A program made the translations under genes and the position numbers. The notes beneath the pieces were generated by a model. The model did no database searches, was not told the DNA's origin, and worked only from the letters and a program-made list of their open reading frames with translations. This document shows positions 16,989 through 22,935 of a stretch of DNA of 64,000 nucleotides, piece after piece (position 1 is the stretch's first letter; each line of letters begins with the position of its first letter). The stretch is from an uncultured Actinomycetes bacterium (GTDB lineage: Bacteria > Actinomycetota > UBA4738 > HRBIN12): NCBI GenBank assembly GCA_963777495.1, contig CAVZQM010000004.1, forward strand, positions 362,715 through 426,714. Reading direction: 5' to 3'.

Positions 16989-18259
16989 CCGACCGGCAGG
17001 CTCTGCTCGCGGGCGGGACCGATCGAAACGACGGACACCGGCACACCGACCAGCTCTCGGAGCCGCTGGACGTACGCGCGCGCCTCCTTCGGCAGGTCCT
17101 CGAACGACGTGGCCTCGTCGATCTCCTCCATCCATCCGTCGAGCTCCTCGTAGATCGGCTCGGCCCTGTGGAAGAGCGACTGGTGCGGAGGGAAGTCCTC
17201 GAACACCTGTCCGTCGGCGCCGTACCCGGTGCAGATCTTGACCGTGTCGAACCCCGAAAGGACGTCGAGCTTCGTGACGAACAGCTCGCTCAGGCCGTTC
17301 AACCGGGCGGCGTACCGGCCGAGCACGGCGTCGAACCAGCCGCAGCGGCGCTTGCGTCCGGTCACCGTCCCGAACTCGTTGCCGCGCACTCCCAGGCGGT
17401 CACCGTCCGCGCCGAGATCCTCCGTCGGGAACGGCCCGGCACCGACCCGCGTGACGTAGGCCTTGACGATGCCGATCACGCGGTCGACCTCCTTGGGACC
17501 GATGCCCGCCGACGCCAGCGCGTAGCCGGCGACCGGGTTCGACGAGGTGACGAACGGATACGTCCCGTGGTCGAGGTCGAGCAGCGTGCCCTGGGCTCCT
17601 TCGAGCATCACGTGCTTGCCGTCCTGCAAGCCTCGGTGGAGCAGCGCGCCGGTGTCCGCGACATGCGGCTCCAGCTGCGAGGCCAGCTCCATGTACTCCT
17701 CAACGATCAGCTCGGCATCGAGCGGCAGGCGGTTGTAGATCTTCGTGAGGATCAGGTTCTTCTCGCGCAGGACCACGTCGAGCTTCTCGCGGAAGATCTT
17801 GGCGTCGAACAGATCCTGCACACGCAAGCCGATGCGCGCGGCCTTGTCCCCATACGCCGGTCCGATACCCCGCTTCGTCGTGCCGAGCGCGTTCTTGCCC
17901 AGGAATCGCTCGGTCACCTTCTCGAGCTCCAGGTGGTACGGCATGATCAGGTGGGCGTTGCCGGATACGACGAGCCGCGACACGTCGACCCCCAGCGCGC
18001 GGAGCTCGGTCATCTCCTTGATCAGATGACGAGGATCCACGACCACGCCGCCGGCGATCACGGATGTGATGTGGTCGTAGAGGATCCCCGAGGGGATGAG
18101 CTGGAGCTTCAGCAGGCGCCCCTCGGCGATCACCGTGTGGCCCGCGTTGTTCCCGCCCTGATAGCGGACGACGAAGTCCATCCGGTCGGCCAGGTAGTCG
18201 ACCGCCTTGCCCTTGCCCTCGTCTCCCCATTGGGTCCCGAGCACGATCGAGGCAGGCAT
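16985..18259 (-). CDS. purA: Adenylosuccinate synthetase
   Basis: This is the 3' 1275 nt of the 966-aa ORF. It starts at MPASIVLGTQWGDEGKGKAVDYL and contains QGGNNAGHTV. Confidence 0.95.
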   Translation of the reverse strand: MPASIVLGTQWGDEGKGKAVDYLADRMDFVVRYQGGNNAGHTVIAEGRLLKLQLIPSGILYDHITSVIAGGVVVDPRHLIKEMTELRALGVDVSRLVVSGNAHLIMPYHLELEKVTERFLGKNALGTTKRGIGPAYGDKAARIGLRVQDLFDAKIFREKLDVVLREKNLILTKIYNRLPLDAELIVEEYMELASQLEPHVADTGALLHRGLQDGKHVMLEGAQGTLLDLDHGTYPFVTSSNPVAGYALASAGIGPKEVDRVIGIVKAYVTRVGAGPFPTEDLGADGDRLGVRGNEFGTVTGRKRRCGWFDAVLGRYAARLNGLSELFVTKLDVLSGFDTVKICTGYGADGQVFEDFPPHQSLFHRAEPIYEELDGWMEEIDEATSFEDLPKEARAYVQRLRELVGVPVSVVSIGPAREQSLPVG

Positions 18260-18407
18260 GGCGTGCCTCAGTCTAGAGGACGCGGGGAACGGCCCTCTCC
18301 CACCGTGGCGCATCCGACCAAAGGCGTACCCATCCGGGTCCTTCGGACGGTTGCCCGGCTCATTCGTGCTTGGTACGTTCACCGGGCAGCTGACCAGACG
18401 ACTGGAG
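18260..18407 (+). promoter_or_regulatory. Structured 5' leader (candidate riboswitch/attenuator aptamer region) of the downstream transporter operon
   Basis: Non-coding gap between divergent purA and the membrane gene. It has mutually exclusive pairings: CCGGG 18334-18338 or CCGGGCA 18382-18388 can each pair with TGCCCGG 18352-18358. It also has a CCAG-ACGA-CTGG hairpin at 18395-18406. Confidence 0.35.
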
Positions 18408-18441
18408 GCCGCGACGCGTGTTTCGCGTTGCGGCTTTTTTT
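18408..18441 (+). terminator. Intrinsic terminator within the leader (11-bp GC stem, 5-nt loop, T7 tract)
   Basis: GCCGCGACGCG (18408-18418) pairs with CGCGTTGCGGC (18424-18434) with one G-T wobble, followed by TTTTTTT (18435-18441). It sits 24 nt upstream of the GGGAGAA-N4-ATG at 18465. Confidence 0.6.
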
Positions 18442-18646
18442 CGCCTTCGATACGGGAGAACCTCATGCAGGAGTTCCGCGGGCTCGCCGAGCCGGATACG
18501 GACGTCGTCGTCATCCCGGCACCGGTGAACACCACCTCGTCGACGCTCAGTCGATCGAGACGCTCGGACACCGCGCCTGGTACATCGCCAAGAAGCTGGC
18601 GCTCTTCCTGCCTGCGATCTTCCTGTTCATCCTCGCCATCCAGCTG

Positions 18647-19645
18647 ATGAAGGCCGGGGCGAGCGCCGTCGGGCCGCAGATCCAAGGGGAGTTCCCGTTC
18701 GCGAACGGCGTGTCGACGCTGGGGACCGGATGGCTCGGTGCCTACTTCGTCCTTTCGGGCTCGCCGGTTGCCGCGACGGCGATCAGCCTGTTCGGCTCCG
18801 GGACGATCACCGAGCTCCAGACGTTCACGATGTTGTCGGGGAGCCGTCTCGGCGCGTCGTTCATCGTGCTGCTCACGGGATTCCTCTACGCGATGCGGAA
18901 CCCGAACCGCTCCCGCGGGGAATCCGTCGGGATCGGCATCCAAGCGTTGACGATGACGGCCATCGTGTACCTGCCGGGGATGCTGATCGGGTACGCGATC
19001 ATCCGCGGAGGGCTGCTCGATGGGATGCAGTGGCACGCCTCGGCCAAGATGGAGGCGACGCTCGGCAAGCTCTGGGGGCCGATCGTGGACTTCGTCTCGG
19101 TGCGGGTTCCGGGGTGGGCGCTGTTCCTCGTCGGGCTCGGCGTGATCCTCGTCTCGTTCAGCCTGCTGGATCGCGTGTTGCCCAACCTGAGGAACCAGAC
19201 GGCGATCTCGAAGCATGCGCGCTGGCTGAAGCACCCCTGGATGATGTTCGGATTGGGGTGCTTGGTCGCCTTGCTCACGCTCTCCGTGTCGGTCGCGCTC
19301 ACCATCCTGGTCCCGCTGGCCGCCAAGGGATACGTGAAGCGAGAGGACGCACTCCCCTACATCATGGGAGCGAACATCACGACGCTGGCGGACACCCTGG
19401 TGGTCGCCATGATGCAGAACACGCCCGCCGCGTCGCAGATCGTCCTGGCCGAAGCCATCGGCGTCACGATCGTGTCCATCGGCATCCTCGCGTTCTTCTA
19501 CACGCCGGTGAAACGGTCGGTGCTCGGCTTGGACGACTGGCTCGTCGCGTCGAACCGCCGGCTGGCCGTGTTCGTCGGCATCCTGTTCCTGTTGCCGGTG
19601 AGCTTCTTGCTCTCGGGTCTCCTGGCCGGCACGCCGGGCGCCTAG
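18647..19645 (+). CDS. Na/Pi-cotransporter-like (PF02690-type) membrane protein; true start probably upstream and frameshifted
   Basis: Two repeats resemble the Na/Pi cotransporter signature (SGSPVAATAISLFGSG; IMGANITTLADTLVVAM). TM-helix-like coding (WYIAKKLALFLPAIFLFILAIQL) continues upstream of ATG 18647 in the same frame without any ATG/GTG/TTG. Confidence 0.7.
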   Translation: MKAGASAVGPQIQGEFPFANGVSTLGTGWLGAYFVLSGSPVAATAISLFGSGTITELQTFTMLSGSRLGASFIVLLTGFLYAMRNPNRSRGESVGIGIQALTMTAIVYLPGMLIGYAIIRGGLLDGMQWHASAKMEATLGKLWGPIVDFVSVRVPGWALFLVGLGVILVSFSLLDRVLPNLRNQTAISKHARWLKHPWMMFGLGCLVALLTLSVSVALTILVPLAAKGYVKREDALPYIMGANITTLADTLVVAMMQNTPAASQIVLAEAIGVTIVSIGILAFFYTPVKRSVLGLDDWLVASNRRLAVFVGILFLLPVSFLLSGLLAGTPGA

Positions 19646-19654
19646 TATCCGAGC

Positions 19655-19843
19655 GTGGCCGACGAGCGCGAACCCGAACAGAGCGTCCAAGAGCGGATCG
19701 CCGAGCTGACCGACGACGAGCGCCTGGTCCTGGCGAAGGTCGCCGACATCGTCCGCAAGATCCAGTACGGAACCGTGGTGCTGGTGATCCAGGACGGCAA
19801 GGTCGTGCAGATCGAGATGGCCGAGAAGTTCCGGTTGCGCTGA
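19655..19843 (+). CDS. yezD: YezD-family small protein (DUF2292)
   Basis: 62 aa. The IQYGTVVLVIQDGKVVQIEMAEKFRL motif is characteristic of YezD. It starts with GTG, and its stop overlaps the next ATG (TGATG). Confidence 0.75.
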   Translation: MADEREPEQSVQERIAELTDDERLVLAKVADIVRKIQYGTVVLVIQDGKVVQIEMAEKFRLR

Positions 19844-20673
19844 TGGCCGATCGATCGGAGGGCGCCGTGGCGGTGGTGGGGGCAAGGGACCAGCCCCGTC
19901 CGAAGCTGGCGGTCGGCCGCCTGGTCAAGACGCGCCGCTCCGCGTCGGGTGTGGACGTCACCGCCGTGGACGACGTCAGCTTCGACGTGCACAGCGGGGA
20001 GTTCGTCTGCCTGCTCGGCCCGTCGGGCTGCGGCAAGACCACCATCCTGAACATCCTGGCCGGGTTGGACCAGCCGACCTCGGGAACGGTCCTCCTGGAC
20101 GGCGAGCCGATCCCCGGGCCCGGACCGGACCGCGCCGTCCTGTTCCAGGAGCCGGCGTTGTTCCCGTGGCTCTCGGTCGTCGCGAACGTGGAGTTCGCCT
20201 TGAAGCACGTGGGCGTCGCCGAGAGCGAACGCCGCGTGCGCGCGATGTCGTGGCTGGAGAACGTCCATCTGACGGGCTCCGCGGACGCCCAGCCGCACGA
20301 ACTGTCGGCCGGGATGCGGCAGCGGGCGGCGTTGGCCCGGGCGTTGGCCTGCGAGCCGGACGTGTTGCTCGGCGACGAGCCGTTCGGCGCCCTGGACGCG
20401 CAGGCGCGCGAGCTGCTCCAGAACGAGGTCCAGCGTGTCTGGGTCGAGAGCGACGGCCGGAAGACGTTCGTGTTCGTCACCCACAACGTGCGGGAGGCCG
20501 CGCTCCTGGCTGATCGCGTGCTGGTGATGACCGCCGCGCCCGGCCGGCTGCTCGAGGAGGTGCGGATCCACGCGCCGCGCCCGCGGAACCTGGACGACGC
20601 CCTGGTCGCGCGCGTGGTATCGGAGATCCACGAGGTGCTCATGGGCGAGGTCAGCAAGGGGAACTCCCCGTGA
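19843..20673 (+). CDS. ABC transporter ATP-binding protein (NitT/TauT nitrate/sulfonate/taurine-type)
   Basis: Walker A GPSGCGKTT, Q-loop, signature LSAGMRQR and Walker B LLGDEPFGALD are present. The LFQEPALFPWLSV motif is typical of SsuB/TauB-like ATPases. Confidence 0.9.
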   Translation: MADRSEGAVAVVGARDQPRPKLAVGRLVKTRRSASGVDVTAVDDVSFDVHSGEFVCLLGPSGCGKTTILNILAGLDQPTSGTVLLDGEPIPGPGPDRAVLFQEPALFPWLSVVANVEFALKHVGVAESERRVRAMSWLENVHLTGSADAQPHELSAGMRQRAALARALACEPDVLLGDEPFGALDAQARELLQNEVQRVWVESDGRKTFVFVTHNVREAALLADRVLVMTAAPGRLLEEVRIHAPRPRNLDDALVARVVSEIHEVLMGEVSKGNSP

Positions 20674-21440
20674 GGCGCCTGGCGAAGGAGTTGGGGCCGC
20701 CGCTCGCCGGCGTCGCGGGCCTGGTGCTGGTCTGGGCGATCGTGGCGTCGTTCGTCTCGTCGGAGACCGTGCCGTCGCCGAGCGAGGTGTGGAGCGCGTT
20801 CACGCGCGGCGTCTCCGACGGCACGATCCCCGAAGCGGCGGCCAAGACGATGATCCGACTGGCGTTCTCGTTCGTCGTGTCGATCGTGATCGGTACGGCA
20901 CTCGGCTTCGGGCTTTCGCTGAACGAGTTCGCGCGCCGGTCGGTGCGGCCGCTCGTCGTGGCCTTGCAGATCACGCCGTTCATCGCGTGGCTGCCGCTCG
21001 CCGTGGTGTGGTTCGGGTTCACGGAGCGAGCGGTGGTGTTCGTGACGATCGTCGGCGCGTTCCCGTCGGTGACCCTGGCCACGATCTCCAGCTTCGGACA
21101 GGTGCCGCCGCTCCTCACGCGAGCCGGGCGGACGCTCGGCGCGAACGGCTGGACGCTCTACCGCGAGGTCATCTTCCCGGCGGCGCTCCCCGGCTACGTC
21201 GCCGGGCTCGACCAGGCGTGGGGGTTCGCGTGGAAGGCGCTCATGGCCGGTGAGCTCATCACGGCCGGCCTCCGCGCCACCGGACTGGGTCAGCTGCTAC
21301 AGCGTTCGCAGGACGACGTGCCCATGCTGGTCGCGACCGTCGCGGTGATCGTGGTGATCGGGGTCGCGGTCGAGTACCTGGTGTTCGGGACCGTCGACCG
21401 CCGGATCCGCCGCAAGCGCGGACTGCTCGTCGACGCCTGA
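20670..21440 (+). CDS. ABC transporter permease (NitT/TauT family, SsuC/TauC-like)
   Basis: 256 aa with 6 predicted TM segments and a BPD_transp_1-like EAA region (RAGRTLGANGWTLYREVIFPAALP). The start overlaps the ATPase stop. Confidence 0.9.
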   Translation: MRRLAKELGPPLAGVAGLVLVWAIVASFVSSETVPSPSEVWSAFTRGVSDGTIPEAAAKTMIRLAFSFVVSIVIGTALGFGLSLNEFARRSVRPLVVALQITPFIAWLPLAVVWFGFTERAVVFVTIVGAFPSVTLATISSFGQVPPLLTRAGRTLGANGWTLYREVIFPAALPGYVAGLDQAWGFAWKALMAGELITAGLRATGLGQLLQRSQDDVPMLVATVAVIVVIGVAVEYLVFGTVDRRIRRKRGLLVDA

Positions 21441-21460: not shown

Positions 21461-21664
21461 CTACCGTTCGATGCGGAAGCGGATGCTCACGTGGGTGTGG
21501 TACTCGGTGATCTGGCCATCCACGACCTTCGCCGTGGTCTCCAGGATCTCCATGCTCTCGATCCCTCGGATCGTCTTGGCCGCCTCGGCCAACGCCTGCT
21601 GCGCGGCATCGCGCCACGAGGAGTCCGATACCCCCACGAGATCGATCGTCTTGATGACAGACAT
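21461..21664 (-). CDS. Dodecin-family flavin-binding protein
   Basis: 67 aa. The IKTIDLVGVSDSSWRDAAQQALAEAAKTIRGI...V...F pattern matches dodecins. Confidence 0.8.
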   Translation of the reverse strand: MSVIKTIDLVGVSDSSWRDAAQQALAEAAKTIRGIESMEILETTAKVVDGQITEYHTHVSIRFRIER

Positions 21665-21676
21665 CGCGTACCTCCC

Positions 21677-22591
21677 TCAGCTCGTCTGCGACTGATACAC
21701 CTGGATGAAGCGGGCGTAGTTCGCCCCGATCTCTCGCGCGGCCGCGTCTCTGGCCAGCGCACCGTCCACGAACGCTTTCAGCGGGTTCCACCAGATCGAG
21801 CGTCCGATCGCGAAGCCCTGGTAGCCGGGAACGCCGCTCGCGGTGGAGAGCCAATGGTCGACCGCGGCCGTGTCCGCTCCGCGGCCGAGCACCACGCACG
21901 CGACGTGATCGCGTCCCGCCATCCGGCATTGCTCGACCATCGCTTCACAGTCCTCGCGCAGGTCGAGGCCCTCGATCTTCCACACGTCCGGTTCGATGCC
22001 GGTCTCCTGCAGCTGTGCGATCGCCAGACGCATCAGGTGCGGCCGCAGCTCGGTGTCGAACCGTTCGACGTCGCCGCCGACAGACTCGAGCTGCTGGGGC
22101 TCCGCGGGAACCAACAGCTCGAACAGGAACTTGCGGTCGTGGTGATGCAGCCACTCGGACAGCTCCTTCAGCCTGCCGGCCTGACGCGCGTTCAGCGTGC
22201 CGTCGCCCTCCGGGTTGAACCGGACCAGCACCTTGCTGAACGTCGGTTCGAAGCGCTCGATGTGCTCGGAGAACGCATCGCCGTACTCGAAGTCGAACTC
22301 GTCCTGACCGGACTTCTCGACCGGCATCGACAGGGTGAGATGTTCCGCCGACGCGCGTTTCGCGATCTCGGCACCGAACTGCTCGTCCACCAGGATGCCC
22401 GCGGAGATCCGGTCGACCCCACCTCCGAGGGCCCCTTGGAAGCCTTCGTAGATCACCATCTTGGCATCGGCGATCCGTTGCGCGTCTTCGGGCGATGGCG
22501 CGCCTTCGATCCCGAAGAACTTCTTCACGAACGATCCGCGGTGGTCGAACGCCAAGATGAACAGGTCGCCTTCGTACCCGAGCCCGATCAT
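21677..22591 (-). CDS. DUF2090-type TIM-barrel aldolase-like protein (IolC C-terminal-domain-like)
   Basis: 304 aa. LFILAFDHRGSF ... KVLVRFNP ... DVWKIEG are recognised from memory as the 2-deoxy-5-keto-gluconate-6-P aldolase-like DUF2090 family. Unverified. Confidence 0.5.
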   Translation of the reverse strand: MIGLGYEGDLFILAFDHRGSFVKKFFGIEGAPSPEDAQRIADAKMVIYEGFQGALGGGVDRISAGILVDEQFGAEIAKRASAEHLTLSMPVEKSGQDEFDFEYGDAFSEHIERFEPTFSKVLVRFNPEGDGTLNARQAGRLKELSEWLHHHDRKFLFELLVPAEPQQLESVGGDVERFDTELRPHLMRLAIAQLQETGIEPDVWKIEGLDLREDCEAMVEQCRMAGRDHVACVVLGRGADTAAVDHWLSTASGVPGYQGFAIGRSIWWNPLKAFVDGALARDAAAREIGANYARFIQVYQSQTS

Positions 22592-22605
22592 CCCTTCGCC
22601 TCCCC

Positions 22606-22935
22606 TCAGTCGTCGCGATCGATGCTAGCCGGTGCCGCCCAGCGCTCGCTGGACGCGGTCCGGCGATCCTCGTCCATGGACTCGGCCGTGCGCCGGAGAC
22701 CGGCCGATGTGAGATCCATCACGACGACCGCCGCCCCGGCCAGCGCGCCGACGCGGACCGCCAGGCTCCCCACGAGGTTCCGACAGCTGGACGCGACGCG
22801 GAGCACGTCGTGATCGGGGCACGATCCGGCCCCGAACGCTCGGGCGGCCAGCCACACCCCCACCCCCACCACGAGCGCCGCGGCGCACAACGAGCCCAGA
22901 TGCAGGGATCGGCGCGATGGTCCGTTCGCGAACAT
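22606..22935 (-). CDS. Hypothetical small membrane protein (109 aa)
   Basis: Internal ATG of ORF 22606..23568. There are two hydrophobic segments (LCAAALVVGVGVWLAA; VGALAGAAVVVM). It sits directly downstream of the MBL gene. Weak evidence. Confidence 0.3.
   Translation of the reverse strand: MFANGPSRRSLHLGSLCAAALVVGVGVWLAARAFGAGSCPDHDVLRVASSCRNLVGSLAVRVGALAGAAVVVMDLTSAGLRRTAESMDEDRRTASSERWAAPASIDRDD

Follow-up and report, generated by a model that had tools for sequence, protein, structure and literature searches.

Why should an intrinsic transcription terminator stand directly in front of a transporter operon when no gene on the same strand precedes it? The question arises in a 64,000-nucleotide (nt) stretch of DNA from an uncultured Actinomycetes bacterium of the HRBIN12 lineage (assembly GCA_963777495.1, contig CAVZQM010000004.1, positions 362,715 to 426,714), referred to here in its full length as the window, in which a noncoding gap of 205 nt (18260-18464) separates purA, on the minus strand with its start at 18259, from an ATG at 18465 on the plus strand. 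The initial annotation of this gap described the divergent purA, the terminator, and the absence of any preceding plus-strand gene, all of which the sequence and Pfam bear out (purA matches Adenylsucc_synt, minus strand, with an E value of 2.9e-174), and it proposed a cis-regulatory leader or attenuator. That proposal has held up: the core of the element recurs in other genera and families, and a covariance model built from aligned instances assigns the window copy 69.9 bits (E value of 7.6e-14). The element lies just 3' of a promoter and on the same strand as the genes that follow it, which encode a sodium/phosphate (NaPi) cotransporter-like protein, YezD, and ATP-binding cassette (ABC) components of the SsuB/TauB type, and its sequence and context identify it as the 5' leader of a sulfur-scavenging operon and a predicted transcription attenuator. 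We put the probability at roughly 55% that it is an attenuator switched ON by sulfur limitation, in which a hairpin is stabilized by a trans-acting factor, most likely YezD.

Comparison with homologous loci, by alignment and covariance model, places the conserved part of the leader at 18389-18409 on the plus strand, a unit which is, to judge from its pattern of base changes, an RNA hairpin and which we propose as an antiterminator. Its basal helix, P1a, pairs GCU (18389-91) with GGC (18407-09); an internal loop sets GA (18392-93) opposite A (18406); the upper helix, P1b, pairs CCAG (18394-97) with CUGG (18402-05); and the terminal loop is ACGA (18398-401). The CCAG-ACGA-CUGG hairpin noticed in the initial annotation (18394-18405) is present and proves to be the conserved core. 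The consensus is GCY-GA-CCRG-(4-5 nt loop)-CYGG-A-GGC, and the window copy fits the more general form GCY-GA-(4 bp)-loop-(4 bp)-A-GGC exactly. A 31-nt core (18386-18416) is 90 to 100% identical in other genera and families, sometimes with two copies within 1.3 kb. In an alignment of 19 instances, the two-helix model gives 98.9% paired cells, together with compensatory changes. With the three flanking bases on each side left unconstrained, 110 of 140 distinct units showed full complementarity of the P1a triplets, whereas a control shift of either side by 3 nt left 1 of 140; the triplets comprise 13 complementary types, G-U pairs included, such as GCU/GGC, GUU/GAC, GUC/GAC, CGU/GCG, AUC/GAU, ACC/GGU, and GAU/GUC, and a further pair, AAC/GUU, is confined to a unit whose 6-nt loop placed it outside the 140-unit count. 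P1b likewise covaries (CCAG/CUGG, CCGG/CCGG, UUGG/CCAA, and UCGG/CCGA, with occasional G-U pairs), and the terminal loop is free in both sequence and length (ACCA, ACAA, AGAA, UCAA, and 5-nt loops). The GA/A bases of the internal loop are invariant while both helices covary around them. The initial annotation had proposed the upstream regions of relatives as a test for covariation and conservation, and both are found there.

Fused to this hairpin is the intrinsic terminator itself (18407-18441, plus strand), recognized in the sequence and by ViennaRNA. Its stem, given previously as 11 bp, has 12 bp formed by GGCCGCGACGCG (18407-18418) and CGCGUUGCGGCU (18424-18435), with the loop UGUUU and a run of seven U residues at 18435-18441, and it precedes the Shine-Dalgarno (SD) sequence and ATG as described. 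A simple consensus terminator scanner reported nothing between 17500 and 19500, despite the hairpin and U7 tract there. The GGC at 18407-09 forms the 3' strand of P1a and, at the same time, begins the terminator stem, and because of this double use, the hairpin would act as an antiterminator; by its sequence, the pair forms a classical antiterminator/terminator arrangement. In ViennaRNA calculations, a nascent RNA of up to 46 nt has its lowest energy as the hairpin with P1a, extended by two extra pairs from a 5' GC, and in the full-length RNA, the terminator state lies at -27.9 kcal/mol versus -24.6 kcal/mol for the antiterminated state.

The position of the promoter determines how much of the gap belongs to the leader. 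A -35 box, TTGCCC (18351-18356), and a -10 box, TACGTT (18374-18379), stand 17 nt apart on the plus strand and follow a promoter pattern of homologous units: TTGACn-N17/18-TAnnnT is found in 53 of 70 such units, ending 9 to 15 nt 5' of the motif, compared with 0.5% of random positions. Since these boxes lie directly upstream, transcription is predicted to start at about 18385-18387, 2 to 4 nt ahead of the motif. The leader RNA would then be some 80 nt long, not 205, and the terminated transcript is expected to be about 55 nt long instead of the 150 to 180 nt foreseen in the initial annotation, whose notion of a structured leader of about 200 nt is not supported. The strings TGCCCGG (18352), CCGGG (18334), and CCGGGCA (18382), to which it had assigned alternative pairings, do exist, but the pairings are not conserved, and those of 18334 and 18352 fall outside the predicted transcript because TGCCCGG overlaps the -35 box and CCGGG lies upstream of it; the competition suggested by the conserved bases is instead that between P1a (18389-91 with 18407-09) and the bottom of the terminator. 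The gap as a whole folds at -99.4 kcal/mol (z = -3.5 versus shuffled sequences). A search of related genomes with a 211-nt gap found only the last third kept beyond the closest relatives. The half of the gap that adjoins purA (18260-18350, ACCAAAG.CGUA.CCA...) is kept among the closest relatives only and probably belongs to the promoter or 5' untranslated region of purA on the minus strand.

The covariance model was used to search the family, the order, and the rest of the phylum. It matched 37 of 61 genomes of the family (22 of 33 genera) and 45 of 121 genomes of the order (7 of 8 families); elsewhere in the phylum (about 139 genomes), it found nothing convincing, with one marginal match (E value of about 1e-4). 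A scan with the exact pattern, using one genome per species, located the actinobacterial version of the motif with a terminator in Geobacter, Geomonas, Pelobacter, Dehalococcoidales, Ktedonobacterales, and Moorella, and three such copies within 8 kb in "Candidatus Methylomirabilis"; many other exact-pattern matches, for example, in Streptomyces, were discarded as chance occurrences, lying in coding regions, having loops not of the A...A type, and lacking a terminator. The initial annotation had recognized no known RNA family in the element, and the databases agree: Rfam 15 applied to the window at gathering thresholds yielded no family for it, whether SAM-I/II/IV/VI, SAM-SAH, a ykkC class, ZTP, T-box, HMP-PP, or any other (one tRNA was found elsewhere), and no match at an E value of ≤1 was obtained for 18 homologous loci. 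A relaxed scan of the window gave as its best score 23.9 bits for BcKCsr2, followed by 21.9 bits for another small RNA (sRNA) model, where the cutoffs are 40; the weak BcKCsr2 and P31 matches were rejected, as they fit the terminator plus a GC-rich hairpin. No paper in the searchable literature describes the motif as an RNA family beyond a listing of 2010 that is considered below. With that listing set apart, and with it the report of 2001 on termination control in the B. subtilis ssu leader, neither the RNA family nor its probable protein partner is described in Rfam 15 or in searchable papers; the kind of mechanism is known.

What the element controls can be read from the genes that follow it, which were called around homologous units by GC content at third codon positions (GC3) and peptide signatures, with representative downstream proteins checked against NCBIfam and Pfam. 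In 60 of 84 distinct units, the first recognized gene within 1.5 kb is one of six types: a NaPi-like transporter (17 units), TauE/SafE (17 units), an SsuA-like binding protein (12 units), the sulfate-binding protein CysP/Sbp (7 units), YezD (6 units), or an SsuB-like ATPase (1 unit). Other units lie ahead of a rhodanese gene, of genes for a SorA-like sulfite dehydrogenase together with a persulfide-dioxygenase-like protein, or, in a few cases, of unknown genes. Elsewhere, in phyla that include Chloroflexota, genes behind the motif encode sulfite reductase, 3'-phosphoadenosine 5'-phosphosulfate (PAPS) reductase (cysH), a PALP enzyme of the cysteine synthase type (cysK), a binding protein of the NMT1/SsuA type, and NifB-like proteins. 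Tandem units that lack a terminator occur ahead of cysP and after yezD, close to the SD sequence, and point to a form of the switch that acts on translation.

Several individual loci extend this picture. By the covariance model, the window's own genome holds two good copies of the motif, that of the window and a more divergent one at contig C4:100402-100462 (42.3 bits, with P1a as ACC/GGC), which lies about 120 nt 5' of a 74-codon open reading frame (ORF); the later genes are on the other strand and are of the tsaD/tsaB type by translated sequence only. In the same genome, the leader of a sulfate ABC operon (C4:165512-165590, preceding cysP, cysTW, cysA, and then a second yezD at C4:169668) contains two terminator-less units, AAC-GA-CCGG-GAGCGC-CCGG-A-GUU and GUU-GA-CCGG-ACCA-CCGG-A-GGC, with a conserved box, CGGUCGAUCGAAAGGAG, at the SD sequence; this leader may be a translational form of the switch. 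Seven copies were counted in the genome of locus L113 (G108:C8:267316-269018), where two complete hairpin-terminator units stand in tandem ahead of a lipoprotein gene and another unit precedes a PstC-like permease that scores under the phosphate equivalog cutoff, a case which hints at an oxyanion ABC system recruited into the sulfur regulon. A small membrane ORF stands behind tandem hairpins at loci L114 and L116 (G108:C11 and G146:C4); the genes after it resemble in sequence those of a UDP-sulfoquinovose-synthase-type epimerase and a glycosyltransferase, so that the regulon may extend to the synthesis of sulfolipids. In three loci of Desulfuromonadia (L152, L187, and L190, from Pelobacter, Geobacter, and Geobacteraceae, respectively), the motif lies ahead of genes for NifB-like radical S-adenosylmethionine (SAM) and Nitro_FeMo-Co proteins.

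A gene that closely tracks the presence of the motif across genomes is yezD, which encodes a protein of the DUF2292 family. Its product in the window also matches the NCBIfam model "sulfur starvation response protein OscA," with a score under that model's cutoff, and OscA is described in the literature, with reference to Viti et al. (2009), as a small protein that is cotranscribed with a gene for a sulfate-binding protein and takes part in the sulfur starvation response. The window genome carries two DUF2292 copies (19655-19846 and C4:169668-169769). Within the family sample, DUF2292 was found in all 29 genomes with a strong motif versus 11 of the 32 others, and at least 8 of those 11 in turn carry hairpin units, which in seven genomes are in tandem, without a terminator, directly after yezD and in the eighth are divergent from yezD; the covariance model matched four of these eight weakly and left the others unmatched. 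The order sample gave DUF2292 in 42 of 45 motif-bearing genomes, with counts per family that are equal for motif and protein; one family (f7) has 7 of 27 genomes with the motif, and exactly these 7 have the protein. Beyond the order, 2 of about 139 genomes of the phylum contain DUF2292, and both hold GUC-GA-CCGG-loop-CCGG-A-GAC about 70 nt past yezD. Eight of 10 motif-bearing genomes of other phyla encode DUF2292, four further loci there have yezD beside the motif, and B. subtilis is the only DUF2292 carrier among 14 control genomes. Where the regulated operon begins with an SsuA-type gene, yezD ends 10 nt upstream of that operon's -35 box. A regulator and the RNA on which it acts would be expected to co-occur in this way.

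We therefore suggest the following course of events, in which we infer which factor binds, that binding turns the switch ON, and that it reports on sulfur. A strong promoter of the housekeeping type would start the RNA 2 to 4 nt before the motif, and the first 25 or so nucleotides would form the hairpin with its conserved GA/A internal loop, the basal helix GCU:GGC, extendable by the 5' GC, taking up bases of the bottom of the terminator. Left to itself, the RNA would pass into the more stable terminator, and transcription would end in the U7 tract after some 55 nt. Under sulfur limitation, a factor, most probably the 62-amino-acid YezD/OscA encoded in or beside these operons, would hold the hairpin shut; the terminator would lose its bottom pairs beside the U tract, and RNA polymerase would read through into the operon. 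A contribution of a few kilocalories per mole by the factor to the stability of the hairpin would suffice. Taken further, YezD/OscA would constitute a new family of RNA-binding antiterminator and translation activator proteins, with the GCUGA-stem-AGGC hairpin as the cognate RNA, and the two together would form a system acting at the RNA level in sulfur starvation in at least five phyla, Bacillus included; we regard this wider proposal as tentative, its chances falling slightly short of even.

A number of points weigh against this proposed course of events. Three motif-positive genomes of the order lack DUF2292 (two of them with weak matches and one a genome of 68% completeness), as do two motif-bearing metagenome-assembled genomes of other phyla. 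The related genomes that enter the co-occurrence counts are not independent samples, and yezD is itself regulated, as in the window, so that membership in a shared island could explain why the two travel together. The AlphaFold model of YezD (two helices and a beta hairpin, at a predicted local distance difference test score of 72) has no significant fold match in the PDB; no solved structural relative was found, and no paper in the searchable literature treats DUF2292 as RNA binding. The window YezD contains neither cysteine nor histidine and offers no obvious route to the sensing of sulfur. The gap of 3.3 kcal/mol between the two folding states, finally, is a value of the nearest-neighbor model alone.

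The reading that competes most seriously with a protein-stabilized attenuator is that of a true riboswitch, in which the hairpin with its GA/A internal loop would bind a metabolite reporting sulfur status (O-acetylserine as an ON ligand or sulfide, sulfite, thiosulfate, cysteine, adenosine 5'-phosphosulfate, or PAPS as an OFF ligand), no protein would be needed, and yezD would be merely the most faithful member of the regulon. There is precedent in the hydroxymethylpyrimidine pyrophosphate (HMP-PP) riboswitch, the thiS motif (PMC6478431), an aptamer embedded in a terminator: there, too, a tiny hairpin is fused to the terminator, conserved bases sit in its left shoulder, and the whole is easily dismissed as a plain terminator. 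The element in the window, unlike HMP-PP, has no Rfam match, belongs to a context of sulfur uptake and not of thiamine, and shows a phyletic link to a protein. Invariant unpaired bases between two covarying helices, the occurrence of tandem units as in some cooperative riboswitches, and the position of yezD downstream of the switch in the window are all features that a riboswitch would share. However, a selective pocket would be hard to fit into a unit of 21 to 25 nt with about three invariant unpaired bases, and neither the sequence nor the length of the terminal loop is constrained. A nearly one-to-one phyletic link with a small protein family across phyla would also be unexpected if the RNA sensed a metabolite; the remaining genes of the regulon are common where the motif is absent. 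The small size of the conserved unit and its tight link to yezD favor a protein partner over a metabolite, and we consider a riboswitch unlikely, although it stands ahead of the remaining alternatives. One of these keeps a bound protein or ligand and reverses its meaning, so that the bound state reports ample sulfur and favors termination, with P1b perhaps stacked on the complete terminator; the single A between the two would permit coaxial stacking, and uptake genes more often have OFF switches. Against this, a covarying P1a excludes the base of the terminator, and the conserved structure would therefore be the antiterminated one, and P1a is retained in the terminator-less units before cysP and after yezD; this opposite logic we hold to be quite improbable.

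The two explanations that dispense with RNA-based regulation fare worse. If the element were nothing but an ordinary sRNA gene, or a terminator insulating the divergent purA promoter region and kept by shared ancestry, then the faint likeness to BcKCsr2 and the ability of a promoter followed by a terminator to yield an RNA of about 55 nt would be accounted for, but the BcKCsr2 score is far under its cutoff, the purA adjacency is limited to the closest relatives, and in unrelated neighborhoods and phyla, the element always stands just before the SD sequence and start of sulfur genes on the same strand, which makes this explanation very improbable. A DNA operator is less credible again. The partly palindromic CCAG-N4-CTGG does lie past the promoter, at about +5 to +25 from the predicted start, where a sulfur-responsive repressor might bind and the terminator be unrelated, but both helices contain G-U wobbles and compensatory changes, the invariant bases are asymmetric, and the strand orientation is strict; the motif adjoins the terminator with a constant 0 nt between them but lies at varying distances from the promoter (9 to 36 nt), and the Bacillus leaders keep the structure with an entirely different stem sequence. 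On these grounds, we rule the operator out.

Bacillus also provides two of the closest known systems. The leader of the B. subtilis ssuBACD operon for sulfonate uptake was reportedly found by van der Ploeg, Barone, and Leisinger in 2001 to be controlled by termination according to the sulfur source, an experimental precedent for the present element; to our knowledge, neither a trans-acting factor nor an RNA motif was identified for it in that work. Naville and Gautheret listed in 2010 an "ssuB-ABC-leader" from the B. cereus group as a candidate attenuator with supplementary alignments (Genome Biol 11:R97, PMC2965389), in which the B. cereus leader reads GCUGA-UUGG-AGAAA-CCAA-A-GGC and the ssuB leader of B. 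licheniformis GCUGA-UCGG-UCAA-CCGA-A-GGC, each followed by a terminator. It appears there only as a premature terminator shared among bacilli ahead of a sulfonate ABC operon; the consensus structure omits the small hairpin, and no partner, mechanism, or wider distribution was proposed (PMC2965389). No Rfam family followed from the listing. By their sequences, the 2010 Bacillus leaders belong to the family of the window element, with P1b fully covaried; the window copy differs from them in its stem, CCAG/CUGG, and in the sharing of three (up to six) terminator bases, not the whole 3' half of the hairpin.

For the kind of mechanism proposed, HutP of the B. subtilis hut operon serves as a model: the protein binds the nascent leader RNA and brings about terminator read-through, and the gene for the small regulator comes first or is adjacent. 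HutP recognizes UAG repeats and requires histidine. The gene order yezD, promoter, hairpin/terminator, and ssuA resembles this layout, whereas YezD has no sequence or fold relation to HutP and is known here from genetic linkage and co-occurrence. Small hairpins, sometimes in tandem, are also a mark of the guanidine-II riboswitch (mini-ykkC), whose ACGR loop the window's ACGA fits, but the present hairpins are mostly single, as in the window, have their conserved bases in the internal loop and basal helix, and accompany sulfur genes. A guanidine-II identity was rejected, given that the loop varies among homologues, the genes are not related to guanidine, and Rfam gives no match. Readings as ANTAR, T-box, K-turn, or PyrR-like elements were set aside, the loop sizes and conserved bases being a misfit and no leader of Stem I size being present; beyond that, the comparison was with Rfam.

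For the regulation of sulfur scavenging, the DNA level (CysB/Cbl, CymR, and CysR/SsuR) and the SAM riboswitches are well understood. A Pseudomonas oscA mutant is reported, in the work of Viti and coworkers in 2009, to lose the use of organosulfur sources, a phenotype that fits an activator and speaks against the opposite logic. To two questions, what OscA/YezD does and how the leader terminator described in 2001 controls the Bacillus ssu operon, a conserved hairpin of 21 to 25 nt that competes with a terminator, marks sulfur regulons across phyla, and tracks yezD almost one to one would offer one testable answer. The element supplies an RNA family that is absent from current genome annotation, and in uncultured lineages, it could serve as a simple predictor of the sulfur regulon, down to such unusual members as NaPi-like transporters, ABC pairs that lack a binding protein, and genes resembling those of nitrogenase. 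If the pairing of YezD with the hairpin is true, it would represent a previously unrecognized regulation of sulfur starvation at the RNA level, in Bacillus as well.

The genes downstream of the leader in the window correspond to the NaPi-like/yezD/ABC operon of the initial annotation, with the correction that no substrate-binding-protein gene follows the ABC pair. An SD sequence, GGGAGAA (18454-18460), precedes the ATG (18465-18467), a start that is kept in relatives (MQEFR.../MEEIR...). The gene for the NaPi-cotransporter-like membrane protein (18465-19645, plus strand; Pfam Na_Pi_cotrans, translations, and DNA alignment) runs out of frame beyond codon 20, with one base fewer at 18524/18525 than in three relatives in the DNA alignment; the frame of the ATG at 18465 comprises 60 codons only, and the frame that encodes the membrane protein has no start codon of its own. 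The frameshift is either an assembly indel or the mark of a recent pseudogene. A genome of 15 contigs at 78% completeness, as here, may be prone to indel errors, and in one relative (L003), the NaPi-like gene is likewise out of frame. There follow, on the plus strand, yezD (19655-19846, 62 amino acids; Pfam PF10055, E value of 1.5e-15), an ABC ATPase of the SsuB/TauB/SaoA type (19843-20673), and an ABC permease (20670-21440), the last two identified with Pfam and NCBIfam. A plus-strand ORF of 440 amino acids at 21491-22813 was rejected as an antisense artifact, having no Pfam match and lying where GC3 favors minus-strand genes. Those genes, named from their translated sequences and not by Pfam, are dodecin-like (21464-21676) and DUF2090-like (21680-22624).

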